Shown one piece after another: positions 3,694 through 60,317 of a stretch of DNA of 64,000 nucleotides. The first letter of the stretch is position 1; each line of letters begins with the position of its first letter. Below the pieces are notes generated by a model. It did no database searches. It saw only the letters and a list, made by a program, of their open reading frames with translations, and was not told where the DNA came from. Made by a program: the position numbers and the translations under genes. This DNA is from Dehalococcoidia bacterium (lineage in GTDB: Bacteria > Chloroflexota > Dehalococcoidia > Lucifugimonadales > CAJWER01), in contig CBDCTY010000002.1 of the NCBI GenBank assembly GCA_965222445.1, forward strand, positions 255,824-319,823, written 5' to 3'.

Positions 3694-3846
3694 TACCAAT
3701 TAGGTGTGATGCCGCCATATATCCATGAACCTGGTTGCTATGCCCTTCGACAGGATCAGGGCAGGTTTACGGCAGTGACCGGGGAAGGCGGGTTACAAAC
3801 CCGCCGCTACGATTTGAATTGACGGCGTAGTCAAAATGAATTGGTA
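3694..3846 (+). mobile_element. MITE-B (153 bp): same outer termini as MITE-A, different interior
   Basis: TACCAATTAGGTGTGATGCCGCCATATA...ACGGCGTAGTCAAAATGAATTGGTA. Shares both ends with the copy at 39253-39450. Flanks are TTA/TAA (discordant). Confidence 0.75.
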
Positions 3847-4252: not shown

Positions 4253-4352
4253 TACCAAGTCACCGTGATGCCGCCGTATATGTGCGGCCAGGGAGTGGGT
4301 TCCCGCCTTCGCGGGAATGACGGATTTACGGCGCGCTCAAAATAAATTGGTA
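4253..4352 (+). mobile_element. MITE-A, short form (100 bp, lacks inner hairpin)
   Basis: TACCAAGTCACCGTGATGCC...GGGTTCCCGCCTTCGCGGGAATGACGG...AAATTGGTA. Flanked by TTA (4250-4252) and TTA (4353-4355). Confidence 0.9.
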
Positions 4353-26301: not shown

Positions 26302-26527
26302 CAGCGGGTAACGTTGCTGCTCCATTGGCTATGTTCGCCAATTTCATTACGGCGCTGGCTCTCTTCGCGAAACCAGTCCCTATCTTCTAGCCCCACGCAT
26401 CAGCCCTTCTAGTGAATGGTGATGGGAGAAATGTTTGGTTGTGTGAGTATCTGAGATAGCCCCGGCAATTCAACCCAACACTGCTTTCCGACGTAAGTGA
26501 TCCTTGAATACCGAATCCTCCAACTAA

Positions 26528-28525: not shown

Positions 28526-28625
28526 TACCAAATCACCGTGATGCCGCCGTATATATGCGGCCAGGGAGTGGGTTCCCGCCTTCGCGGGAATGACGGCTTT
28601 ACGGCGCGCTCAAAATAAATTGGTA
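28526..28625 (+). mobile_element. MITE-A, short form (100 bp)
   Basis: TACCAAATCACCGTGATGCC...CCCGCCTTCGCGGGAATGACGG...AAATTGGTA. TAA on both sides; shares TAA 28626-28628 with the next copy. Confidence 0.9.
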
Positions 28626-28628
28626 TAA

Positions 28629-28752
28629 TACCAAGTCACCGTGATGCCGCCGTATATGTGCGGCCAGGGAGTGGGTTCCCGCCCCGTATCGAGTACGGGG
28701 GAGGCTCTTCGCGGGAATGACGGTTTTACGGCGCGCTCAAAACGAAATGGTA
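28629..28752 (+). mobile_element. MITE-A, long form (124 bp), alpha hairpin
   Basis: Head-to-tail with the previous copy. Flanked by TAA (28626-28628) and TAA (28753-28755). Confidence 0.9.
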
Positions 28753-34827: not shown

Positions 34828-34874
34828 GCTCCAGTCCCATCCCGGCCTCCTTCCGCCAGGGGACAAGGGGCTTA

Positions 34875-34998
34875 TACCAAGTCACCGTGATGCCGCCGTA
34901 TATGTGCGGCAAGGGAGTGGGTTCCCGCCCCGTATCGAGTACGGGGCAGGCTCTTCGCGGGAATGACGGCTTTACGGCGCGCTCAAAATGAATTGGTA
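34875..34998 (+). mobile_element. MITE-A, long form (124 bp), alpha hairpin
   Basis: Near-identical to other long copies. Flanks are TTA (34872-34874) and TAA (34999-35001), discordant. Confidence 0.9.
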
Positions 34999-35012
34999 TA
35001 ATGTCGGGCTTC

Positions 35013-36260
35013 TTACCAGGGGGGTGAGCGGCCGGGGTGCATGGAGTCCAGGGGTGCTGCCGAGGGGTCCGGTCCGTACCAGTGCTCCTTGAGCTTTTCC
35101 CTGATCCTGCGCTCGGTGGGGGTGAGCTGGGGAGAGTTTCCAGTTTCCGGTTTTGAGTTTTTGGTGGAGGCCCGGGGCGATTCGTGGGGCGGCCCTACGA
35201 TCAATCTCATGCCAGACCTCTTGCGGGCGAGCCTGTCCTCGAGGTCGGTGTCGTCGAACGTCTGGTAGGCGTTTCCGTGGCCCACAATGAGGTCGGGGGA
35301 GATGTAATGAGAGACTCCGTCCTCGTCCACCTCGAACGGGCCCTGCTCGTCGAAGGCGTAGACGGCGCCGGTGATCTCATCGCGTGCGAACTTGCAGCGG
35401 GTTATGTGGCGCGAGTCGTAGTTGGCCCGTTCGATTTCCTCGATGGTGATGGGTGGGAAGTTCCTGGTTTTTGGTTTTGGGCTCACCGCTGAGGGCGCAG
35501 AGGGAGGGTTCTTGGTTTCTGGTTCTGGGTTTCTAGTGGAGACCGAGGGCGTTTCGGCCGAGGGGACGGGATGGGTTCCCGACTTCTCGGGAACGACGGA
35601 TAGGGAGCCGGGCTCGGGGTGAGCGGGGTTGGGATGGGAGCCACGCCCCGCGCCGCCCCTCTGGGTTCCCCGTATCGAGTACGGGGCAGGCTCTGCCTTC
35701 GCAGGAACGACGGGGGTGTTGTCGTTGGTGATGTAGCCGGATAGCTCTTTGGCGGCTTCCATGCGGTGGTGGGGCTTGAAGCCCAGGAGTGTGCCGTGCA
35801 TGACGCCGGCCAGGAAGTAGACGATGGAGCGGCCGTCGCCGGTCTCCTCGCGGACGAGCTGCTGAAGCCTGCGCCGGAAGGGGTTGGGTCCGCGAGAGAC
35901 GTCCTCGCTTCGCTCGGGCGGGCTGCTCTTTATGGGGGAGCGGCGCACGGGGAGCACGCTGGTGCCACGGTACGAAGGGCGGCACTGGGCGTTGTAGTAC
36001 TTCTGCAGGTACCTGGCGACGAGTCCGGGGGCGATCTTGTCGAGTCGCCTGGCGGCGGACATGCGGTGTCGGTCCTCGAAGCCCTCGAGGCTGCCGTCGG
36101 CGACGCCGAGGTAGAACTCGGCGATGAGGCGTCCGTTGTCGGTGACCTCGCGGACGATTTCCGCCATGGTGGGCGGTCTGTTCTGTTGTGTTGCCACGCT
36201 CATGTGTTCTAGTATATCAGGCGTGTCAAGGGGGGGGAAGGATTCACCCGGATTCCCCAC
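35013..36260 (-). CDS. Hypothetical protein with two tandem ~40-aa N-terminal repeats, repeat-derived low-complexity linker and unknown C-terminal domain (start uncertain)
   Basis: Internal repeat IVREVTDNGRLIAEFYLGVADGSLEGFEDRHRMSAARRL / LVREETGDGRSIVYFLAGVMHGTLLGFKPHHRMEAAKEL supports coding. The central part is encoded through two core modules (35568-35599, 35661-35713). Confidence 0.5.
   Translation of the reverse strand: MGNPGESFPPLDTPDILEHMSVATQQNRPPTMAEIVREVTDNGRLIAEFYLGVADGSLEGFEDRHRMSAARRLDKIAPGLVARYLQKYYNAQCRPSYRGTSVLPVRRSPIKSSPPERSEDVSRGPNPFRRRLQQLVREETGDGRSIVYFLAGVMHGTLLGFKPHHRMEAAKELSGYITNDNTPVVPAKAEPAPYSIRGTQRGGAGRGSHPNPAHPEPGSLSVVPEKSGTHPVPSAETPSVSTRNPEPETKNPPSAPSAVSPKPKTRNFPPITIEEIERANYDSRHITRCKFARDEITGAVYAFDEQGPFEVDEDGVSHYISPDLIVGHGNAYQTFDDTDLEDRLARKRSGMRLIVGPPHESPRASTKNSKPETGNSPQLTPTERRIREKLKEHWYGPDPSAAPLDSMHPGRSPPW
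35568..35599 (+). repeat. Solo short core module inside an ORF
   Basis: GGGATGGGTTCCCGA-CTTC-TCGGGAACGACGG (8-bp stem GTTCCCGA/TCGGGAAC). Confidence 0.7.
35661..35713 (+). repeat. Solo core module (alpha hairpin, degenerate outer stem) inside an ORF
   Basis: CTGGGTTCCCCGTATCGAGTACGGGGCAGGCTCTGCCTTCGCAGGAACGACGGG. Confidence 0.7.
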
Positions 36261-36388
36261 CTGATTTGCACGGGCGGCGTGACGGACTGCCTCTGAGGCT
36301 ATGGCTGTGCACCTTGCCGGGGATGAGTTCCCGCCCCCGACTGCTCGGGGGCAGGCTCTTCGCGGGAATGACGGAGGTGGGGAATTTG
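36249..36388 (+). mobile_element. Family-D TIR element (~140 bp) carrying a beta core module
   Basis: Termini GATTCCCCACCT (36251-36262) and AGGTGGGGAAT (36375-36385). 9-bp direct repeat GGATTCACC at 36240-36248 and 36389-36397. Homologous to 39501-39641. Confidence 0.75.
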
Positions 36389-36632
36389 GGATTCACCGCA
36401 GAGGACGTCCTTCGGCAGGCCCTTCGACAAGCTCAGGACGGGCTCAGGACAGGCGCCGGGCACAGAGAGGAGGAGTTATGGGGAAGAGGGGAATGGCCGA
36501 AGCAGGATTCCCAGGATCGGGGGATTATCGGCATTGGGAGGGACTGGAGCAGTTGTAGGGAAGCCGGCAAGGGCATCTGCCGGTTGGCACGTTGGGTCGA
36601 GCAGGTTCGGCCGTCCCCTCGATGTTGGCGTG

Positions 36633-36699
36633 TTGGTACTATCTTATATCTATAAATCCGAAACGAACGTGAAATGAACTGGAAATGAGGCGTACATGG
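36633..36699 (+). promoter_or_regulatory. AT-rich conserved leader/promoter region (copy B) upstream of the DUF3800 gene
   Basis: TTGGTACT...CGAAACGAACGTGAAATGAACTGGAAATGAGGCGTACATGG aligns with 33542-33607. The ATG at 36696 opens a 50-codon ORF that overlaps the DUF3800 start. Confidence 0.4.
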
Positions 36700-36828
36700 A
36701 CGTTCGCATGAGATTGCCGGGCCGGGGGATTGACAGACTGGTGGGCGGTCTTCTATCATTGAAGCAGTCGACAGGGCCCCTACCGGTTGGCTCGTTGGGT
36801 CAAGCAGACCCAGTCGGCTCCTGCCTAA

Positions 36829-37575
36829 ATGCACATAGTCTACCTTGACGAATCTGGCACCCACTCGGAGGCCCGCTACTTTGTGATAGCGGGCCTTGCC
36901 GTTTTCGAACGCGAAACCTACTACCTTGCTCGGAGCCTGGACCAGATACAGGCGCGTTACCTTCCTGATGCAAGCGGGAGAGTCCCATTCCATGCCTCTT
37001 CACTGCGGGCGCGTGAAGGGCGTGTGCCGCCGCCGTTTGATTCGTTGACACAACAAGAGAGGGATAGACTGATAACAGACATCTACCACGTAATCGCCAA
37101 ATCCAAGGCTAGATTATTCGCCGTGGCCATGGAGAAGGGCTTCGTGGATGGAGACCCATATGAGCGTGGATTTGAAGAGATAGTCAACAGGTTTGACCTG
37201 ATGCTCGGTAATGACTTGAGAGATACCGGCGAGGTACAGAGAGGGCTCATTATAGTCGCGGAGTCGAGTTATCGGGAGAATCTCGAACTACTGGCTGAAC
37301 GCATAGCCACTGAAGGCCACCGATGGGGTGAGACTCACAACCTGGCTGACATTCCGTACTTTGCACCCGCCAAGAGCACTCGACTACTCCAGTTGGCAGA
37401 CTTTGTTGCTAATGCAGTGTTCGGTAGGTATGAAGGCGGATACACACAGAACTTCGACCTGATCGTTCCCAGATTCCACCAGGATGAGGGACGTATTCAC
37501 GGCCTAGTACACAGGTCCAGAGACTTTCAAAACTGCTACTGCCCAGCTTGCATACTGAGACGCCCCAACAACTAG
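36829..37575 (+). CDS. DUF3800 domain protein
   Basis: MHIVYLDESG N-terminus and LLQLADFVANAV motif, typical of DUF3800. Lower GC than the backbone. Confidence 0.75.
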   Translation: MHIVYLDESGTHSEARYFVIAGLAVFERETYYLARSLDQIQARYLPDASGRVPFHASSLRAREGRVPPPFDSLTQQERDRLITDIYHVIAKSKARLFAVAMEKGFVDGDPYERGFEEIVNRFDLMLGNDLRDTGEVQRGLIIVAESSYRENLELLAERIATEGHRWGETHNLADIPYFAPAKSTRLLQLADFVANAVFGRYEGGYTQNFDLIVPRFHQDEGRIHGLVHRSRDFQNCYCPACILRRPNN

Positions 37576-37626
37576 TCCTGACGATCAGTAAGTCCCGCTG
37601 ATAGTCTTGGCCTACAAGCGTGAATC

Positions 37627-39210
37627 ATGAAGACGCCTGAGAACCTCGTGAAGGCCGTCGAGCACCTGGAGCCGCAGGCGATTCTCCTGCTGGACACCAA
37701 CACAGTCATGGACTACCCGCAGTTCGTATCGCACAAAATTGCCGCGCCGGGGCCGTTCCTGTTGGTCGTCCCGCAAGTCGTTGACAATGAGCTACTGAGT
37801 CTGACCTTCAACAATGACCCAGAAAAGAAAGAGACGAAGCAGAGGGCTTCACGCGCTCGAAAGTATCTAGGGAAATTGTACGAGCGAGGCAACGCAGCCG
37901 ACGGTATTGGTGTTGGGAACGATCGTTGGGTAATGACCGTTAGCGCTCCCAGGCCAGCAGCCCCTGAGAACACACCCATAGAGGAGGACCAGATATGGAG
38001 GTATCTGGGCCAGGTCGATGCGGCCCTGCTGAGGCTGGCGGATGCCTGTGCCGAGGACATTTCCGACACCCGGACAGTCCTTGTCACGAAAGACAGAAAT
38101 CTAGCCCACACCGCTAGGTCACGTGGGATTGCTGTTTTCTCGTTGCCGAAGCTGCGGTCACGTGAGGCGCTGGGCGAATTGCTTGGCGATGATAGTTCCA
38201 GCGGGGTCGCAGACATTGAAGCCGACGTAGCCTCACTCTTCGATACTGACAAGAAACAGCCAGTGACTATATCGATGACCCTCGAAGAGCTCGGGAGCAA
38301 TGGAGACAATCTGATCGCGCAGGGGACTGGTCGTCTTACCTTTAGCCGCGAGAGTCATCCTTTCCGTTGGACCTACCTCTACAAGAATGCAGAGAATATC
38401 GAAGATATTGGCTCGCTGTTCGACATGATCGGCAACGCGGGGGGCATGCCTGTCGAGAATCTCGATTTCATGGGTGGGAGTGAAGAACGAATCCCAGAAC
38501 AGGTTAGACGCTTCGCCTGCTCGATGTTGGAATCAGCAGGTTGGGCCGATCTAGATTTGACCATAAACGCAACACTGATTTGGAGCGAAATACTCGATGG
38601 AGCGATTGAATGGGATCATTTTTGGCACAGGGGTCTCTATAGCCTGCTTTCGCCTCACATACGAATTCGTCTTGCATTCATGTACATGGAAGGCACCTTA
38701 TGGGGCTATAGTCAGTCGATCTTAGGCGATGGACTAGAGCAAACTCCTGATGAAATAGACGAACTTCTTCGCCTGTCCGAAGAGTACATCCTATGTTGTC
38801 TAGAAGTAATAGGACATTCACTGCCCTCTCTTCCCTCTGAGCAGGAAACGGTGAATACATTAAATAGGGCCATGGCGAACATGATGGCCAAAGACCCGAC
38901 CAAAGACGGCGAGAAGTACGCGGCATTCATAGCCAGGTATGGTGACGATGGTGGTGACGAAACTGCTCGGGTTGGCACTGATTACGACGGCATCGGCGAC
39001 GCGTATCTCAAAGCCTCTCAAGCCTATCGGGCGCTTGCTGAGTACTTGGACCATCCGACGAGCAGTTTGGATTCCGGTCTAAAGTGGCTCCTGAACGTTG
39101 CTTCAGATTCTTGGACTGTCGGACAAACGCGAGAGCGAGAGTTCAATTATGTTTTGCCTACCTTGTCCGAAGAGGATGGAAAAGCAACGACTGAGGACAA
39201 CACGGACTGA
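37627..39210 (+). CDS. PIN-domain protein fused to a ~340-aa uncharacterised C-terminal region
   Basis: N-terminal ~180 aa look PIN-like (LLLDTNTVMDY, VVPQVVDNEL, DAALLRLA, LVTKDRNLAHTARSRGI). The rest is unrecognised with an acidic C-tail. 51 nt downstream of the DUF3800 gene on the same strand. Confidence 0.6.
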   Translation: MKTPENLVKAVEHLEPQAILLLDTNTVMDYPQFVSHKIAAPGPFLLVVPQVVDNELLSLTFNNDPEKKETKQRASRARKYLGKLYERGNAADGIGVGNDRWVMTVSAPRPAAPENTPIEEDQIWRYLGQVDAALLRLADACAEDISDTRTVLVTKDRNLAHTARSRGIAVFSLPKLRSREALGELLGDDSSSGVADIEADVASLFDTDKKQPVTISMTLEELGSNGDNLIAQGTGRLTFSRESHPFRWTYLYKNAENIEDIGSLFDMIGNAGGMPVENLDFMGGSEERIPEQVRRFACSMLESAGWADLDLTINATLIWSEILDGAIEWDHFWHRGLYSLLSPHIRIRLAFMYMEGTLWGYSQSILGDGLEQTPDEIDELLRLSEEYILCCLEVIGHSLPSLPSEQETVNTLNRAMANMMAKDPTKDGEKYAAFIARYGDDGGDETARVGTDYDGIGDAYLKASQAYRALAEYLDHPTSSLDSGLKWLLNVASDSWTVGQTREREFNYVLPTLSEEDGKATTEDNTD

Positions 39211-39252
39211 CAGAAGGAGACACTCCAATGCCCCTGACCCATCTCGAAATAA

Positions 39253-39450
39253 TACCAATTAGGTGTGATGCCGCCATATAAGGGCTGAAGGAGGTGCCCG
39301 GCTTGCCCATAGCCACCCGGTCTGTGTGCAACCGCCGGGGACTGGATGGGGGACGGTTCCTGCGGGGCAGGAATCCCGGTTCAAGGCCGGAATGACGGAT
39401 TGCTGAACTGCGTCACGTTCAATTCACGGCGTAGTCAAAACGAAATGGTA
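39253..39450 (+). mobile_element. MITE-B (198 bp)
   Basis: TACCAATTAGGTGTGATGCCGCCATATA...ACGGCGTAGTCAAAACGAAATGGTA. Shares both ends with 3694-3846. Flanks TAA/TTA (discordant). Confidence 0.75.
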
Positions 39451-39500
39451 TTAGACAGGTGAGATGGCTGTATCCCAAATGTCAATACAACCTGGGGATC

Positions 39501-39641
39501 CCAGATCCACCACCTAATTTGGACGGGCGGCGTGACGGACTGCCTCTGAGGCTATGGCTGTGCACCTTGCCAGGGATGGGTTCCCGCCCCCGACTGCTCG
39601 GGGGCAGGCTCTTCGCGGGAATGACGGAGGTGGGGGATTTG
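39501..39641 (+). mobile_element. Family-D TIR element carrying a beta core module
   Basis: GATCCACCACCT...GACGGGCGGCGTGACGGACTGCCTCTGAGGCTATGGCTGTGCACCTTGCC...core...AGGTGGGGGATTTG. About 90% identical to 36249-36388. Confidence 0.7.
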
Positions 39642-39651
39642 GGGGGATGAC

Positions 39652-39869
39652 CAGGGCCTTTCCAAAGTCGTCACAATGCCATATCGTCACAATGCCATAA
39701 GAGGGGGATCTGGGAAATCCCTTCTCCCTCGGTGGGAGAAGGTTAGGATGAGGGTGACTGACTTGTATCGGTCAACGCCCCCTCACCCCCGTATCGAGTA
39801 CGGGGCAGGCTCTAACCCTCTCCCGCGAAGGGGCCCGCGAAGGGGAGAGGGAACTTTGGAAAGGCCCTA
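39652..39869 (+). mobile_element. Family-C TIR element (218 bp), complete copy
   Basis: Termini CAGGGCCTTTCCAAAGT and ACTTTGGAAAGGCCCTA match 16 of 17 as inverted repeats. 9-bp direct repeat GGGGATGAC at 39643-39651 and 39870-39878. Contains the alpha hairpin at 39787-39805 and the empty TTA site at 39743-39745. Confidence 0.8.
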
Positions 39870-39928
39870 GGGGATGACGCCCAAGGTCTGAATCGGTGTA
39901 CCATAGGCTTGGAGAGTGAGGAGGGAAT

Positions 39929-40480
39929 GTGGCTACGACGACGCGGCGCGTGACGGCGGAAGAGCTGCTGCGTATACCGAGGGGCGGCTTCCGATACGAG
40001 CTTGTCAGAGGGGAGTTGAAGAAGATGCCGCCAGCCGGACACGCCCGCGGGGAATACGCCCTGTCCATAGGGGCCTCGCTTCGGGCACACGCAAGGGCGA
40101 ACGGGCTGGGCAGGGCCTACGCCGCAGAGACGGGATTCAAGCTGGAATCCGATCCCGACCACGTTCTCGCTCCTGACGCGTCTTTCGTACGCAGCGAGAG
40201 GGCGGAAGCGGCAAGAGGGACGCCGGGGTTCTTCCCCGGCCCTCCGGACGTCGCCGTCGAGGTGATTTCGCCGAGCGATCGCTACACAGAGATCGACGAG
40301 AAGGTGGCCGACTGGCTCGACGCCGGAACGCTCGCCGTCGTGGTGGTGGACCCACGCAGCCGTACCGTCAGGATTCACCGCTCGCAGGCCGACGTCGAAG
40401 CCCTGGGGGAATCGGACACCCTCCAAGTCGGCGACGTCGTTCCCGGCTGGCGAATGCCGGTCAGGGACATATTCGAGTAG
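39929..40480 (+). CDS. Uma2-family (DUF820) PD-(D/E)xK endonuclease
   Basis: GTG start after a GAGGAGGG RBS. 183 aa, roughly two-thirds identical by eye to 31116-31667 (FRYELVRGELKKMPPAGHARG...PDVAVEVISPSD...VPGWRMPVRDIFE). Confidence 0.8.
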   Translation: MATTTRRVTAEELLRIPRGGFRYELVRGELKKMPPAGHARGEYALSIGASLRAHARANGLGRAYAAETGFKLESDPDHVLAPDASFVRSERAEAARGTPGFFPGPPDVAVEVISPSDRYTEIDEKVADWLDAGTLAVVVVDPRSRTVRIHRSQADVEALGESDTLQVGDVVPGWRMPVRDIFE

Positions 40481-40564
40481 GTATTCTCAACACGGGCAGG
40501 TGATGGGAGTCGCCAGAACCCAACGGCCTCTGGTGTACTGGCCCCGTATCCGGACATTGTGAGA

Positions 40565-40620
40565 GGGATGGATTCCCGCCCCGTATCGAGTACGGGGCAG
40601 GCTCTGCGCGGGAATGACGG
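40565..40620 (+). repeat. Solo core module (alpha hairpin)
   Basis: GGGATGGATTCCCGCCCCGTATCGAGTACGGGGCAGGCTCTGCGCGGGAATGACGG. Confidence 0.8.
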
Positions 40621-40741
40621 ATTGGATGGTATGCGCCTGTAGAGAATACCCTTCGAGTAGAGCATAAACCGCATCCCAGTACGAATGCGCCGCCCGGCGG
40701 AATCCTGTGACGTGCGGACGCCGTGAACCTGTCCCAGATTA

Positions 40742-40865
40742 TACCAAGTCACCGTGATGCCGCCGTATATGTGCGGCCAGGGAGTGGGTTCCCGCCCCGT
40801 ATCGAGTACGGGGCAGGCTCTTCGCGGGAATGACGGCTTTACGGCGCGCTCACAATGAATTGGTA
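40742..40865 (+). mobile_element. MITE-A, long form (124 bp), alpha hairpin
   Basis: Flanked by TTA (40739-40741) and TTA (40866-40868). Confidence 0.9.
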
Positions 40866-40893
40866 TTAGTAGGCGGCGATCCACATCCACCCC

Positions 40894-40922
40894 TGGATTC
40901 CGGCTTTCGCCGGAATGACGGG
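40894..40922 (+). repeat. Solo short core module, compensatory variant
   Basis: CTGGATTCCGGC-TTTC-GCCGGAATGACGG. The stem TTCCGGC/GCCGGAA replaces TTCCCGC/GCGGGAA. Confidence 0.65.
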
Positions 40923-41109
40923 TGAGTAGTGCCTACCAATTTGGGACAGCATCGGACGCCGTCAGGAATTTGACAGGCCGCCGTCCAAACGGTACATTGG
41001 CCCGACTTCTTCCCCGCCCGCTGGATTGTGGCTTCGGTCATGTCCCTGGGCGGGTGTTTTTATGCGTGCCATCATGGTCTGGACGACAGCAGTAGAAGGA
41101 GAACCGCCA

Positions 41110-45411: not shown

Positions 45412-46035
45412 CTACTGCCTGCGGTCGCGGAGGTGGGTGTAGATGTCCTCCGGCTTGGCGCCGTTGGCCGACAGCAGGACCAGCAGGTGGTACAGCAGGT
45501 CGGCCGCCTCGCGGGCCAGGGCATCTTTATCGAGCTTCACGCCCGCGATCACTGTTTCGCCCGCCTCCTCGATGACCTTCTGGCCTATCCGGTCCACTCC
45601 GCCCCTGAACAGCTCCGTCGTGTAGCTGCCCTCGGGCAGGCTCCTCTTGCGGTCCTGGATCACCGAGAAGAGCTCGTCGAGAATCCCCGGCCCGCCCTCG
45701 GACCTCTCGAAGTCGGGCATCTCTTCCAGCGCGGTGAAGAAGCAGACGCGCTCACCCGTGTGGCATATCGGGCCGTCCGGGTCCACCTGCAGCAGTATCA
45801 CGTCCGCGTCGCAGTCGATGGCCGCCGACCTGACACGCATGTAGTTGCCGGATACCTCGCCCTTGTGCCACAGGTCGGCCCTGCTGCGGCTGTAGAACCA
45901 GACCTCGCCGCCCTCCAGCGTCCGTTTGAGCGCGCCTGGGCTCATGTAGCCCAGCATGATCACCTCGCCCGTATCCGCATTCTGGGCAATGGCGGGTACT
46001 AGTCCCTTGTCATCGAGCTGGACTGTCACTGTCAA
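45412..46035 (-). CDS. hisI: Bifunctional phosphoribosyl-AMP cyclohydrolase / phosphoribosyl-ATP pyrophosphatase
   Basis: LVPAIAQNADTGEVIMLGYMS...WFYSRSR..LWHKGE.SGN (HisI) followed by a HisE-like C-terminal half (ELF.VI..RK......SYT..L). Confidence 0.85.
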   Translation of the reverse strand: MTVTVQLDDKGLVPAIAQNADTGEVIMLGYMSPGALKRTLEGGEVWFYSRSRADLWHKGEVSGNYMRVRSAAIDCDADVILLQVDPDGPICHTGERVCFFTALEEMPDFERSEGGPGILDELFSVIQDRKRSLPEGSYTTELFRGGVDRIGQKVIEEAGETVIAGVKLDKDALAREAADLLYHLLVLLSANGAKPEDIYTHLRDRRQ

Positions 46036-46074
46036 ACCGCCTCCGTTTTCGCGTCCAGAGACCCTTGCGTAACC

Positions 46075-46365
46075 CAGGGCCTTTCCAAAGTCGTCACAAT
46101 GCCATAAGAGGGGATCTGGGAAATCCCTTCTCCCTCGATGGGAGAAGGTTATACCAAGTCACCGTGACGCCGCCGTATATGTGCGGCCAGGGAGTGGGTT
46201 CCCGCCCCGTATCGAGTACGGGGCAGGCTCTTCGAGGGAATGACGGCTTTACGGCGCGCTCAAAATAAATTGGTATTAGGATGAGGATGACTGGACTTGT
46301 ATCGGTTGACGCCCCCTCACCCCCGTATCGAGTACGGGGCAGGCTTTTCGCCGGAATGACGAGGT
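46075..46365 (+). mobile_element. Family-C element, right end missing or diverged, with MITE-A nested inside
   Basis: Starts CAGGGCCTTTCCAAAGTCGTCACAATGCCATAAGAGG. Colinear with 39652-39810 except for the MITE-A insertion at 46152-46275. The alpha hairpin lies at 46321-46339. Confidence 0.7.
46152..46275 (+). mobile_element. MITE-A, long form (124 bp), alpha hairpin, nested in family-C element
   Basis: Flanked by TTA (46149-46151) and TTA (46276-46278). The homologous uninterrupted site is GAAGGTTAGGATG at 39738-39750. Confidence 0.92.
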
Positions 46366-47207
46366 TGTGCGAGGTCTCCATCCACCGGGCGTATCGGAAG
46401 GCCCCGGCTGCTGAGGTATTCCTTCACTTCGGCCACCCTCAGCTTGCCGAAATGGAAGATGCTGGCGGCCAGCACCGCGTCGGCCTTACCGGTGCTCGCA
46501 GCCTCGTAGAGGTGCTCTGCCTCTCCCGCGCCGCCGCTGGCGATGACCGGCACGTCTACAGCTTCGGATATCTCGCGGAGCAGCTCCAGGTCGTACCCGG
46601 TCTGCTGACCGTCGGTGTCCATACTCGTTACCAGGAGCTCGCCCGCGCCTAGATCGGCTGCGCGTACTGCCCACCGTACAGCGTCCACTCCGGTGGGCCT
46701 CCTTCCGCCGTGGGTGTAGACCTCCCACACGGAGTCCTCGTCCAGGGCAAGGCTGGTGTCGGCGGGCGTCGGCGAAGCCTCGGTGGCATCCTCCAAACCG
46801 GGGGCGACTCGCTTCACGTCCATCGCTACGACGATGCACTGGCATCCGAAGTGGTCCGACGCCTCCGCGATTAGGCTAGGATCCCGGACAGCGGCCGTAT
46901 TTAGAGATACCTTGTCCGCCCCGGCCTCCAGCAGGCCCCTCACGTCCTCGACCGAGCGGACGCCTCCACCCACCGTCAGGGGTATGAATACCCGCTCGGA
47001 GACCTGCTTGAGCACGTCCATCATGATCTCGCGCGAGTCGGAGCTGGCCGTGATGTCCAGGAACACCAGCTCGTCCGCGCCCTCTCGATCATAGAAGGCC
47101 GCAAGCTCGGCCGGGTCGCCTGCGTCCCTGATGTCGACGAAGCTGACGCCCTTGACGACGCGCCCCCGGTCGACATCCAGGCACGGAATGATCCTCTTGG
47201 TCAGCAT
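46317..47207 (-). CDS. hisF: Imidazole glycerol phosphate synthase cyclase subunit, with repeat-derived ~20-aa C-terminal tail
   Basis: [20 protein letters not shown]...RDAGDP...A..Y...[13 protein letters not shown]. The last residues, ...[15 protein letters not shown], are encoded by the family-C/core repeat. Confidence 0.85.
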
Positions 47208-47932: not shown

Positions 47933-48022
47933 CGTCTACCCCATAAGAGTTGGACGAACCCGCCAAGCTTGACAAGTGAGGAGGATATGGTAATCATTGA
48001 CGTGGACTCTCCACAAGTCTAA

Positions 48023-48146
48023 TACCAAGTCACCGTGATGCCGCCGTATATGTGCGGCCAGGGAGTGGGTTCCCGCCCCGTATCGAGTACGGGGCAGGCT
48101 CTTCGCGGGAATGACGGCTTTACGGCGCGCTCAAAATAAATTGGTA
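48023..48146 (+). mobile_element. MITE-A, long form (124 bp), alpha hairpin
   Basis: Flanked by TAA (48020-48022) and TAA (48147-48149). Confidence 0.9.
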
Positions 48147-48266
48147 TAACCCAACGAAGCGTGAGCTTGGCATGGATGGGGGCCTCACGCCCCCCTTGAG
48201 GCTCACGATAGGGTTTCGGCGACTTGTGGAGAGTAGCCAACATCCTCGCCACAAGGGGGCTTTATC

Positions 48267-49547
48267 GTGCTGAAGCCCAAAACTCTCGCAGCGATTGGCA
48301 TAATCATCGCACTGATGGTCGGGGGCGGTGTGGTGATGGGCCAGCAGACTTCGGCCTGCATCACCGGAGGGGCTGTCGCGTCCGGCAACGCCGGTCTCGC
48401 CGCCGACTGCGAGGCCCTGTTGGATTCGAAGGATACCCTTCGAGGCACCGCGGACCTCAACTGGTCGTCCTCTCTCTCCATAAGGCGGTGGGATGGCGTC
48501 CGCCTTGGGGGAACCCCCGAGCGGGTGACCATAATCAGGCTTCAGAAGAAGGGGCTGAGCGGGCAGATACCCGCGGCCCTGGGCAGGCTGGATGCGCTGG
48601 AAGAGCTCTGGCTGTATGACAATGAGCTCACCGACGCCATTCCCCCCGAGATGGGGAACCTGACCAACCTGCGCTGGCTGTTCGTCTCCACCAACAGTCT
48701 GAGCGGGCAGATACCGGAGACGTTGAACAGCCTGACCCTGGACAGGCTATGGCTCCAGCAGAACGACTTCACGGGCTGCGTGCCGTACAACCTCACGCAG
48801 ACAAGAGAGTACAAGGTGGACAGGGGGCTCCCTGCGTGCGCGCTGCTTGGGAACGCCACGCCGACGCCTGCGCCCCCTGGCGCCACGCCAACGCCCGTAC
48901 TGCCGCAGCCGACACCGTCCGGCGACAGGTTGGGAGCAATCGAAGGCAGGCTCAGCGATGTCGAGAGAAGAGTTGCAGCCCTAGAGGCTGATATGGCTCG
49001 ACTTCTGGCTACACCAACTCCAACTTCGACTCCGACACCAGGCCCTTCGCCGACGCCGGAACCTACTCCAACACCTACTCCAACACCTGATCTTGGTACC
49101 CAACAGCTACCCGTACCATTTGGGACTACCTTCACCATCCAGAACTCCACCACCGATCATTGGGAGTTCACGATCCTCAAGACTACCCCAGACGCTACAA
49201 GTGATATCCTCAACCATAGTCGGTACAATGACCCTCCAGCGCCTGGAAATCAGTTCTACATGGTGAGAGTGAGAGCCAAGTACCTGGGCACAGGTTCCGA
49301 AAAGTTCGGATACTACAGCAGGTTGAAGTCTCTGGGCGAAGGCGGCGTAGTCTATTCATGGCTTAGGAACAACTGTGGATCAGTTCCAGATAGACTCCCC
49401 GATCCCGAGCTATTCAAGAACGGACAGATCGAAGGCAATCAGTGTTGGGAGATTGCCTCGTCGGACGCCGATTCCCTGGTTCTAATTGTCGAACCAGACA
49501 GCAGTAGACACAGCCGGCATTGGTTCTCGCTCACACCGTCGCCATAA
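48267..49547 (+). CDS. Secreted leucine-rich-repeat protein with PT linker and C-terminal beta-sandwich-like domain
   Basis: Signal/anchor LAAIGIIIALMVGGGVV. Plant-type LRRs (LSGQIPAALGRLDALEELWLYDNELTDAIPPEMGNLTNLRWLFVSTNSLSGQIP). PT-rich linker. The 3' third has lower GC. Confidence 0.7.
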   Translation: MLKPKTLAAIGIIIALMVGGGVVMGQQTSACITGGAVASGNAGLAADCEALLDSKDTLRGTADLNWSSSLSIRRWDGVRLGGTPERVTIIRLQKKGLSGQIPAALGRLDALEELWLYDNELTDAIPPEMGNLTNLRWLFVSTNSLSGQIPETLNSLTLDRLWLQQNDFTGCVPYNLTQTREYKVDRGLPACALLGNATPTPAPPGATPTPVLPQPTPSGDRLGAIEGRLSDVERRVAALEADMARLLATPTPTSTPTPGPSPTPEPTPTPTPTPDLGTQQLPVPFGTTFTIQNSTTDHWEFTILKTTPDATSDILNHSRYNDPPAPGNQFYMVRVRAKYLGTGSEKFGYYSRLKSLGEGGVVYSWLRNNCGSVPDRLPDPELFKNGQIEGNQCWEIASSDADSLVLIVEPDSSRHSRHWFSLTPSP

Positions 49548-49682
49548 CAAGCTGGGGAAAGGGGCAGGGCGTACTGTAGTAGTTGGGCAAGGGAGAGTCC
49601 TCCGACGGCGGCGATGCCCCGGCGGCCTGCCGCCGGCTAGGGGTGGTGTGCTTCACGACAATGCGCCGGCTCCCGACATCAC

Positions 49683-52084: not shown

Positions 52085-52897
52085 GGCCTGTTCACACTAA
52101 TTAACCAGATCATGTTACAATCCGGGAATGGAAATCACAGAAGCTCAGTACCAACTTATTGCACCGATCCTTCCCGTTCAACGTGGCAACGTCAGCTTGC
52201 CGAACCTGCAAGTTCTCAACGCCATCTTGTATGTCGCCGAGCAGGGCTGCAAGTGGCGGGGGTTGCCGCCTCGATTTGGCAACTGGCACACTGTATACAT
52301 GCGGATGAACCGTTGGTCAAAGAATGGGGTGCTCGACCGGATATTCGAATATCTGCAACGAGAGCAGATAGTGCGCATCAAGCTCGAGGCGGTTTCGATG
52401 GACAGCACCATCGTCAAGGTCCATCCCGATGGTACGGGTGCGTTAAAAAAAACGGACCCCAGGCCATCGGCAAGTCCCGTGGCGGTTGGACCACCAAGAT
52501 TCATATGGTTGCCGCGGATGCTAGAACAGCCGTAACGTTCTCCCTCTCTCCCGGACAGGCCCACGACGCGCCAGAGGGGCGGAAGTTGTTGACACGCCTT
52601 GGCTCACAGGGCCAGAAGCCGTTCCTGATAATGGACCGGGCATACGAGGGGAATGAGACCCGCCAACTGGCGTTGGCGCTGGGGTTCACGCCGGTTGTTC
52701 CGCCCCTGAGCACCCGAGTTGACCCTTGGGAGTACGACCGGGAGATGTACAAGAGGCGGAACGAAATCGAGCGGTTGTTCCGTCGGTTGAAGGGGTTTCG
52801 TCGCATCTTCTCTCGCTTTGAGAAGCTCGACACGCTCTTCCTCGGGTTCATCCTGTTTGCCCTCATCTTCGATGCGCTACGTTAGTGTGAACAGGCC
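52085..52897 (+). mobile_element. IS5-family insertion sequence (813 bp)
   Basis: Perfect 16-bp terminal inverted repeats GGCCTGTTCACACTAA (52085-52100) and TTAGTGTGAACAGGCC (52882-52897). Flanked by CTAG on both sides (52081-52084, 52898-52901). Confidence 0.9.
52128..52885 (+). CDS. IS5-family transposase (DUF4096-type N-terminus + DDE), two frames joined by predicted -1 frameshift
   Basis: orfA reads MEITEAQYQLIAPILP...LNAILYVAEQGCKWRGLP..FGNWHTVY.RMNRW. orfB reads ...GGWTTKIHMVAD...LIMDRAYEGNETR...RNEIERLFRRLKGFRRI. The frames overlap at an A8 run (52445-52452), and orfB is in the -1 frame. Confidence 0.85.
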
Positions 52898-53901
52898 CTA
52901 GTTGGGCCATGGCTCGAAGGTATATCTTCTCTGCGGGGGTAAGCCGGTCAAACCTGACCCGGAAGAAGCTCTCGTCGAGGTCGGCGACGGCCTGGCGGGA
53001 AGCGTCCTCTACATCCACCTCTGTGATGGGAGAGCTCTCGGCCATGTCCCACACATGCTTCCCCCACTCCTGCAGGAAGTATGGATAGCATTGGGTTTGG
53101 GAAACGATGGCGTCGAGTGCGCGGGGCTCTATCCGCACCCCTTCGTCTTTCGCGGGCTTGGCAATCGCAAGCCTGGCGTCTTCAGGTGACAGCGCTCCGA
53201 TCTCAGTGAACTCGAATAGCCTCTCGGCGTAAGATTTGGCTCTCCCCACGCGGCCCCGCACCTGGGGCAGTCCCGCCCCAACCATGGTCACGGGGAGCCG
53301 ACGCTGAGATGTCCGGTGCAATGCCGTGATCAATGCCGCGAGCTCTTCCTCCTTCACATATTGGAACTCGTCGATGAAAAGCGTCAGGCAGCTTTCGTCC
53401 GCCCTAGCGGCATTTCCGACAACCTCGAGCAAGTCCTGCAGGTCGGCTTCCAGGTCGCCGTTGTCGGCTAAGCCGGGTTCAGGTTCGAAGTCCAGTCCGA
53501 CTTCGATGTCCTGAAACTTCACCTTCAGAGCTCCGGCAAAGCCGGCAAGTCCTCGAAGAGCTCGCTGCGCCAGCTGCTTTGCGGCCTCTCTATTCGAGAG
53601 CTTCAGCAAGGCCAGACGTAGCTGGGGCGCCAAAGTCGCGGGTAGGGAGCGGCCTTCAGGCGCTTCGATCCGCAGGGCACAGATGCCGTTCGCCTCGGCG
53701 TCCTCTCGGATACGGTCCAGCAGCACAGTCTTCCCAACGCCCCGCAGACCCACCATCATCACGCCCTTGCTGGGGCGCCCGATCCTGGTCCTCTCCAGTG
53801 CGATCCGCGCGGTCTCGCGAACCTCGTGGCGGCCGGCCAGCTCTGGGGGCTGTGTGCCGGCTCCTGGCGCATATGGGTTGCGAATCGGGTCCATGGGGTC
53901 G

Positions 53902-58243: not shown

Positions 58244-58380
58244 CGGGGCCTTTCCAAAGTTGGCTCCCTGCGGAAGGGACATACCCTACCGCCCACCTGG
58301 ATTCCCGCCCCCGACTTCTCGGGGGCAGGCTCTGCGCGGGAATGACGGTATGTGGTTTATGGGACAATGGAAAGGCCCTG
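58244..58380 (+). mobile_element. Family-C TIR element (137 bp) with beta-type core, inserted in the proB-proA spacer
   Basis: Termini CGGGGCCTTTCCAAAG and CAATGGAAAGGCCCTG. Direct repeat GACCTACACA (extendable to 15 bp GACCTACACACGGGG) at 58234-58243 and 58381-58390. Core at 58298-58348. Confidence 0.75.
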
Positions 58381-60068: not shown

Positions 60069-60191
60069 TACCAGTTCGCTGTGATGCCGCCGTATATGTG
60101 CGGCCAGGGAGTGGGTTCCCGCCCCCGACTGCTCGGGGGCAGGCTCTTCGCGGGAATGACGGCTTTACGGCGCGCTCAAAACGAAAAGGTA
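60069..60191 (+). mobile_element. MITE-A, long form (123 bp), beta hairpin
   Basis: TACCAGTTCGCTGTGATGCC...CCCCCGACTGCTCGGGGG...GAAAAGGTA. TAA on both sides; shares TAA 60192-60194 with the next copy. Confidence 0.9.
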
Positions 60192-60194
60192 TAA

Positions 60195-60317
60195 TACCAA
60201 GTCACCGTGATGCCGCCGTATATGTGTGGCCAAGGAGTGGGTTCCCGCCCCCGACTGCTCGGGGGCAGGCTCTTCGCGGGAATGACGGCTTTACGGCGCG
60301 CTCAAAACGAAATGGTA
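60195..60317 (+). mobile_element. MITE-A, long form (123 bp), beta hairpin
   Basis: Head-to-tail with the previous copy. Flanked by TAA (60192-60194) and TAA (60318-60320). Confidence 0.9.

Follow-up and report, generated by a model that had tools for sequence, protein, structure and literature searches.

In the 64-kb stretch of Dehalococcoidia DNA analysed here (64,000 nucleotides, hereafter the window), a repeat called family C has one copy at 39.7 kb and another at 46.1 kb, and the second carries 124 bp that the first lacks. This locus raises the question of whether the two copies are the empty and the filled state of one target and, if so, what moved and into what. The insert belongs to a family designated MITE-A. 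It was inserted in a second MITE at the end of hisF with duplication of TTA, an instance of transposon nesting that is clear but ordinary.

Filled and empty copies of the target

The following features define the site.

46152..46275, + strand, MITE-A copy, 124 bp, with TACCAA/TTGGTA termini within imperfect 27-nt TIRs
46149..46151, unstranded, TTA target-site duplication, left copy
46276..46278, unstranded, TTA target-site duplication, right copy
39743..39745, unstranded, single TTA, paralogous empty site

The initial annotation had read the two family-C copies as a filled and an empty site, and the coordinates and sequences that it quoted for both are exact. The 39.7-kb copy is GGGAGAAGG-TTA-GGATGAGG, with TTA at 39743-45. 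The 46.1-kb copy is GGGAGAAGG-TTA-(46152-46275)-TTA-GGATGAGG, and its 124-bp insert has the ends TACCAAGT...AATTGGTA. The TTA said to be single in one copy and double in the other is so base for base.

MAFFT misplaced the insert when the copies were aligned in their raw form, and a local alignment from which 46152-46278 (the 124-bp element and one TTA) had been removed was used in its stead. When 39652-39869 was aligned in this way with 46075-46365, the colinearity that had been claimed held over 39651-39811, with 140 identical columns, four substitutions and three indels. Of the indels, two are of 1 bp and the third is a 16-bp tandem duplication present in the 39.7-kb copy. No difference falls within 10 bp of TTA. 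The closest ones are 12 bp to the left and 11 bp to the right of it, which fixes the boundary without ambiguity; the duplicated sequence is TTA alone and not TA or GTTAG.

The MITE-A family

A BLAST search with the 124-bp insert found 14 full MITE-A copies in the window, with a mean column identity of 86% when aligned. They start at 1092, 4253, 26528, 28526, 28629, 30960, 34875, 40742, 43602, 46152, 48023, 60069, 60195 and 62441. The 24-nt left end of the insert recurs 11 times and its 20-nt right end 13 times in the window, against an expectation of 0, which is far beyond chance. Identical TNA triplets flank 13 of the 14 full copies. GTDB representative genomes were also scanned for the pattern, and the matches listed all fell in one genome, the long-read Dehalococcoidia MAG CBDHCU01. 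Parts of the window are syntenic with this MAG at 88-95% identity; the window thus comes from a related organism. We collected 62 loci of 8 kb (about 0.5 Mb) from CBDHCU01, and they contain at least 68 full MITE-A copies. These 68 and the 14 of the window make up the 82-copy set used below.

The triplets on the two sides are identical in 67 of the 82 copies (TAA 40, TTA 22, TCA 4, TGA 1), and 77 have TNA on both sides. MITE-A therefore has a target-site duplication of fixed length, 3 bp. The target is V|TNA|B, where position -4 is C, G or A and position +4 is G, C or T, with C favoured before the triplet and G after it. The site G|TTA|G of the 46.1-kb insertion fits this consensus. The boundaries TACC...GGTA proposed in the initial annotation are supported by the TNA flanks of the 82 copies, by an orthologous empty site and by a further copy of the target module (see below).

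Both ends of MITE-A fit a common 26-nt pattern, TACCAANTCANNNTGANNNCGCCGTA. The outermost 6 bp of the TIRs, TACCAA/TTGGTA, are perfect, and the imperfect 27-nt arms are 70% complementary. The element is non-coding and is 124 bp long, or 100 bp in a short form. Its interior consists of a REP-like core in which hairpins are nested, and the whole element is predicted to fold into a rod-shaped hairpin (RNA, -50.6 kcal/mol, z = -3.4). No copy lies inside or overlaps a called gene, and Rfam gave 0 matches at gathering score in the whole window. Variants with the same ends and other interiors were found in the window (3694-3846 and 39253-39450) and in two MAG loci (L053 3858-4052 and L039 7683-7852), as is expected if one transposase serves several MITE subfamilies. 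No described MITE family from Chloroflexota or Dehalococcoidia was found in the literature that was searched, and MITE-A appears to be undescribed.

In 11 of the 82 copies TNA is present on both sides with a different middle base. They are the window copy 34875-34998 (TTA/TAA) and 10 copies in MAG loci, for example L050 7839-7962 and L049 3512-3635, and the last two have an identical 10-nt right flank. The mismatched triplets and this common flank suggest that copies have recombined or that a larger repeat was the insertion target. Two tandem pairs occur in the window, at 28526-28752 and 60069-60317, and each pair has a common TAA. TNA beside an existing MITE-A copy thus seems, from such arrangements, to be a preferred target.

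Candidate transposase

Like PIF/Harbinger elements, which duplicate TWA, and related groups, which make 3-bp duplications at C|TNA|G (PMC4482050, PMC2213677), MITE-A duplicates 3 bp (TNA/TWA) at a target resembling C|TNA|G in the 82-copy set. PIF/Harbinger is related to bacterial IS5 (PMC4482050, PMC2213677), and the fixed 3-bp TNA duplication with its preference for flanking C...G points to a DDE enzyme of this IS5 / PIF-Harbinger class. MITE-A is thus most probably a non-autonomous DNA transposon that was mobilised in trans by a DDE transposase, duplicated TNA and was inserted in a resident family C. The superfamily of the enzyme and its action in trans are what we infer, since 0.58 Mb of sequence contained no transposase gene with MITE-A termini.

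The proposed course of events is as follows. A family-C copy would have landed earlier in a short insertion with inverted repeats that lies at the hisF 3' end. A DDE transposase acting in trans would recognise the imperfect 27-nt TIRs of MITE-A (TACCAANTCANNNTGANNNCGCCGTA), and the 124-bp element would move non-autonomously, by cut-and-paste or copy-and-paste. Cuts staggered by 3 nt at a V|TNA|B target, followed by repair, would duplicate TNA. A MITE-A copy would in this way have entered the TTA of the resident family-C element.

We searched the window and 65 loci (0.58 Mb) for an autonomous element with TACCAA... ends by TIR pairs, long repeats and phmmer with the local transposases, and none was found. 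The searches yielded IS4-like and IS5-family ISs, none with MITE-A ends. Three IS5-family ISs were considered as partner and rejected, their TIRs (GAGCCTATCC..., GGGCCTGTTC... and GGTAGTGTTG...) being unrelated to those of MITE-A; no TIR is common to MITE-A and any of the three. The first, with the TIR GAGCCTATCCGA, is about 930 bp long, has DUF4096 and DDE_Tnp_1_2 ORFs and is flanked by TTA/TTA in L038. In L017 (2656-3582) it lies exactly on the TNA beside a MITE-A copy, and the orthologous TAA of the window (26525-26527) is empty. The second, in the window at about 52086-52899, has the TIR GGGCCTGTTCACAC, a TA duplication within CTAG and two ORFs with an A8 slippery run (frameshift site) at about 52447. 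The third, with the TIR GGTAGTGTTGACATTT, occurs in L005 and L035. Judged by these sequences, the lineage has active IS5-family ISs, with a target of the same kind as that of MITE-A.

Two other classes were considered and rejected for MITE-A. An IS630/Tc1-mariner type would duplicate TA, and the empty sites hold the whole triplet once. An origin from IS200/IS605 or from REP/RAYT does not agree with the TIRs and with a duplicated triplet that covaries on both sides.

Orientation of the copies

The + strand carries all 14 MITE-A copies of the window and the two window variants that share their ends. With the two tandem pairs discounted, this bias has a two-sided binomial p of about 1e-4. The flanking genes of the window are on both strands, and the flanking-gene configurations of the 82-copy set (++ 25, -- 14, +- 19, -+ 17) have no relation to orientation, so a link with the strand or transcription of the flanking genes was rejected. 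In CBDHCU01 the strands are balanced, with 34 copies on + and 34 on -. Neighbouring copies there are co-oriented in 44 of 64 cases (permutation p = 0.002), and same-strand runs comprise 8-9 copies over 170-270 kb. Solo core repeats have the orientation of a MITE-A copy in the same locus in 32 cases and the opposite one in 14. The orientation of MITE-C (family C) is not correlated with that of MITE-A in the same locus.

A palindromic TNA target alone does not predict the uniform orientation of the 14 window copies, and this speaks against a DDE mechanism. Strand-specific, single-strand movement by an HUH/Y1 enzyme (IS200/IS605- or RAYT-like) would account for it, TNA then being a target motif together with a look-alike end. 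The co-orientation of neighbours in CBDHCU01 and the mostly co-oriented solo occurrence of the REP-like core fit such movement as well. The middle base of the triplet, however, covaries between the two sides in each of the four forms counted above; the triplet is present once in empty sites, and terminal inverted repeats are present. These three features indicate staggered double-strand cutting and not insertion of the IS200/IS605 type, and we consider single-strand movement very unlikely.

Under mobilisation by a DDE transposase, the orientation bias needs another source. Mean GC skew differs between loci with + and - MITE-A copies, which weakly suggests a link with the direction of replication; the sign of the skew agrees with orientation in only 33 of 52 cases (p = 0.07), and the replication-type skew of the window is about zero. 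That MITE-A insertion, or later survival of the copies, is directional at the DNA level, for example by coupling to replication-fork direction, is a speculative and rather doubtful proposal. If it were true, copy orientation would preserve, like a fossil, the direction in which a much-rearranged genome was replicated, and directionality would be unusual for a DDE element with a palindromic TNA duplication. Hu and Derbyshire are said to have reported an orientation preference in 1998 for IS903, a member of the IS5 family. Co-orientation would be the sole feature of wider interest here, and only if confirmed genome-wide.

Empty sites in other genomes

A second pair of empty and filled sites, orthologous in this case, involves the following copy.

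28526..28625, + strand, MITE-A copy, 100-bp type, TAA duplication, orthologous site empty in L017

The CBDHCU01 locus L017 reads CGAAGTACATAA|TACC..., and the window reads CGAAGTGTATAA(100-bp MITE-A)TAA|TACC... At the junction, ...ACATAA|TACC in L017 thus corresponds to ...GTATAA(100 bp)TAA|TACC in the window. It follows that a second MITE-A went into the TAA beside an older copy. Filled and empty sites are therefore at hand both as paralogs (39743-45 vs 46149-278) and as orthologs (L017 vs window 28526-28628). MITE-A is mobile and insertion-polymorphic between related genomes. The hairpin module of family C was also found in L066, a metagenome contig from another organism, where it has a single TTA, GGGAGAAGGTTAGGATGAGGGTG. 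This third copy of the target module agrees with the 39.7-kb copy and with the filled-versus-empty reading.

The comparison of two copies by itself gives no polarity. An ancestral family C may have held MITE-A, and the 39.7-kb copy may have lost it by precise excision or by TTA-TTA recombination, since recombination across the 3-bp repeat would restore a single TTA. The single TTA in the other organism's contig argues against such a loss, as does a TIR-based survey of CBDHCU01, in which none of the family-C-type elements sampled had a MITE-A insert. Moreover, more than 80 unrelated sites are occupied by MITE-A, every one with a TNA duplication of its own, and other copies are insertion-polymorphic at orthologous loci. 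Loss from the 39.7-kb copy is thus highly improbable, and gain of MITE-A by the 46.1-kb copy is the reading that we retain.

Family C is a variant of a second MITE family

The two family-C copies have the following parts.

39652..39869, + strand, full family-C (MITE-C) copy, 218 bp, 16/17-bp TIRs, MITE-A site empty
39643..39651, unstranded, left 9-bp target-site duplication of family C, GGGGATGAC
39870..39878, unstranded, right 9-bp target-site duplication of family C, GGGGATGAC
46075..46151, + strand, family-C copy, left part, with the left TIR CAGGGCCTTTCCAAAGT (46075-46091) and the hairpin module CCTTCTCCC/GGGAGAAGG
46279..46345, + strand, family-C copy, continuation after MITE-A, colinear with 39746-39811 up to GGCAGGCT, without right TIR
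46346..46364, + strand, tail of the REP-like core repeat, TTTCGCCGGAATGACGAGG, joined to family C at a shared 27-nt hairpin

Family C had been described as a repeat. It is one, and it is itself a MITE, with the 17-bp TIR CAGGGCCTTTCCAAAGT and a 9-bp duplication; in the 39.7-kb copy the TIRs match perfectly over 16 bp. When the 218-bp copy was compared by BLAST with 0.5 Mb of CBDHCU01, only the shared 27-nt hairpin matched and no full copy was found. A TIR-based search of the same MAG showed that some 30 elements, each 114 bp long, end in the family-C TIR CAGGGCCTTTCCAWWGT, nearly all with a perfect 9-bp duplication; these relatives rule out that family C is a mere two-copy repeat. A third element of the window with the family-C TIR (58244-58380, 137 bp) has the 9-bp duplication GACCTACAC. 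Family C is thus a variant of a second MITE family, which makes a 9-bp duplication. Nesting also occurs in the reciprocal direction. Each of two MITE-A copies of CBDHCU01 (L042 2406-2650 and L036 543-788) contains a 114-bp element that bears the family-C TIR, and these inserts have the 9-bp duplications CGGCCAGGG and CGTGATGCC.

The 46-kb family-C copy has the left TIR only, the tail of the REP-like core repeat having taken the place of its right part. This right end, joined at the 27-nt hairpin, is indeed chimeric, and the 11 MITE-A copies with mismatched TNA flanks suggest exchange between copies; that the whole 46-kb structure is a chimera made by illegitimate or homologous recombination of repeat modules, and not by transposition, is nevertheless barely conceivable, because its MITE-A segment is complete, has the exact termini of the family and a perfect 3-bp duplication at a site, G|TTA|G, that fits the consensus target, a set of features that recombination would not yield.

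The outer insertion and the hisF-hisIE junction

The features around the nest are as follows.

46058..46380, unstranded, whole inserted block, 323 bp, missing from relatives
46054..46057, unstranded, TCCA, left copy of the 4-bp duplication of the block, single in the relative L064
46381..46384, unstranded, TCCA, right copy of the 4-bp duplication of the block
46317..47207, - strand, hisF (Pfam His_biosynth), last 19 codons and stop (46317-46376) from the inserted block
45412..46035, - strand, hisIE (Pfam PRA-CH and PRA-PH), likely start GTG at 46029 with GGAGG upstream

The closest relatives, L063 and L064, were recovered through HisIE (97% and 90% identity). Their hisF-hisIE spacing is 49 bp and 1 bp, respectively, without repeats. 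L064 aligns to both sides of the window region, and all of 46058-46380 is an insertion. Family C, MITE-A and this outer insertion flanked by TCCA form a nest of at least three layers, the outer one with TCCA, family C of the 9-bp class and MITE-A with the 3-bp TTA. The initial annotation had placed such nesting in the hisF-hisIE intergenic region; the nesting stands, and the site is more than intergenic, the block being inserted in the 3' end of hisF.

The arms of the block, GAGACCCTTGCGTAACC (46058-74) and GGTTGTGCGAGGTCTCCA (46363-80), form an imperfect inverted repeat. No other copy of the arm GAGACCCTTGCGTAACC was found in the sampled loci, and its lone other match, in the window, has three mismatches, so that a repeat family defined by the outer ends of the block was not established. 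Their first bases resemble the GAGACC...GGTCTC ends of some IS5-family elements (PMC4596501), a likeness that may serve as a lead only.

HisF of L064 ends in ...RPVDGKTEAV*, and the C-terminus of the window protein differs. Its last five residues (KTEAV in L064) are exchanged for 19 repeat-encoded residues and a stop. The hisF stop and the hisIE start overlap in L064, an arrangement that suggests translational coupling. In this relative the original hisF 3' end also contains GGAGG, the ribosome-binding site of hisIE. The inserted block has parted hisIE from hisF, and the overlap is lost in the window. A scan of 45950-46450 for promoters and terminators found nothing. The rewritten HisF C-terminus and the broken hisF-hisIE overlap are thus consequences of MITE activity.

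Comparison with known elements

MITEs derived from IS5-family ISs are known from prokaryotes. The MITEs of Porphyromonas gingivalis and the ATR element of Neisseria have TIRs that match such ISs (PMC4596501; reviewed in PMC2229807 and PMC10969869). Like them, MITE-A is small, non-coding and multi-copy, has TIRs and a short duplication, lies between genes or at gene ends, and shares its genome with IS5-family ISs. Unlike theirs, its TACCAA... termini have no counterpart among the IS5-family ISs found here.

The eukaryotic PIF/Harbinger-Tourist (TWA) and NuwaII (C|TNA|G) elements have the same 3-bp TNA duplication and C...G flanks (PMC4482050, PMC2213677), and for them validation by paralogous empty sites is standard and nesting is frequent, as here. 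They differ from MITE-A in being eukaryotic and in their TIR sequences, and the analogy is a mechanistic one, only through the IS5-like DDE superfamily. Nested MITE insertions are routine in plants and are known in bacteria (PMC2229807, PMC10969869, PMC2213677).

The core of MITE-A (GGGTTCCCGC-hairpin-CAGGCTCTTCGCGGGAATGACGG), GC-rich and folded as a nested hairpin, also occurs solo in intergenic DNA, like REP, BIME and REPIN sequences, and REPINs differ from MITE-A in having neither TIRs nor a TNA duplication (PMC3116915). No RAYT gene came to notice in the course of the analysis.

Within the core, some MITE-A copies have a 24-nt inner hairpin, CCCGTATCGAGTACGGGGGAGGCT. It is present in a window copy (28682-28705), missing from its ortholog (L017 559-658) and also missing from the window copies at 4253, 28526 and 43602. 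Other MITE-A copies have a second version of the hairpin, CCCCGACTGCTCGGGGG, at the same position. The difference could be due to insertion, deletion or gene conversion, and there is a smaller possibility that the hairpin is itself a tiny mobile insert. Elhai et al. are said to have described in 2008 small dispersed repeats (SDR) of Nostoc, tiny elements nested inside MITEs. Like these, the 24-nt hairpin is found in some MITE copies and not in others that are otherwise their orthologs or paralogs. Unlike them, it occurs in almost no context other than the core repeat, and gene conversion or a deletion subfamily would account for it equally as well as mobility.

The ends, target and duplication given above define an abundant MITE family cleanly in Dehalococcoidia, from an under-studied phylum, together with a second family that makes a 9-bp duplication. 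Such definitions help the annotation and assembly of repeat-rich Dehalococcoidia MAGs.

Other rearrangements in the window

Breakpoints of synteny with close relatives coincide with MITE copies, a further consequence of MITE activity. In the close relative L063, 91 bp stand in place of a 6.3-kb segment of the window (34828-41089). This segment is bounded by direct MITE-A copies at 34875 (flanked by TTA/TAA) and 40742, has a lower GC content (0.56 at 36-40 kb), encodes PIN_4, DUF3800 and Uma2 proteins and holds the 39.7-kb family-C copy. The genes hisH and hisA adjoin in L063 and L064, and in the window 1.75 kb (47933-49682) lies between them, with a MITE-A copy (48023) and an opposite-strand gene for a leucine-rich-repeat, Pro/Thr-rich protein (48267-49547). 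An exact search with HisA of the window matched no record.

The IS4-like element found in CBDHCU01 is a 1.48-kb IS (L005 94-1570) that encodes a 442-aa DDE_Tnp_1 transposase and has the TIR GGGCGGGTTTGAAACC... At least six copies occur in this MAG (L005, L014, L039, L045, L046 and L049), with 93-99.7% identity.
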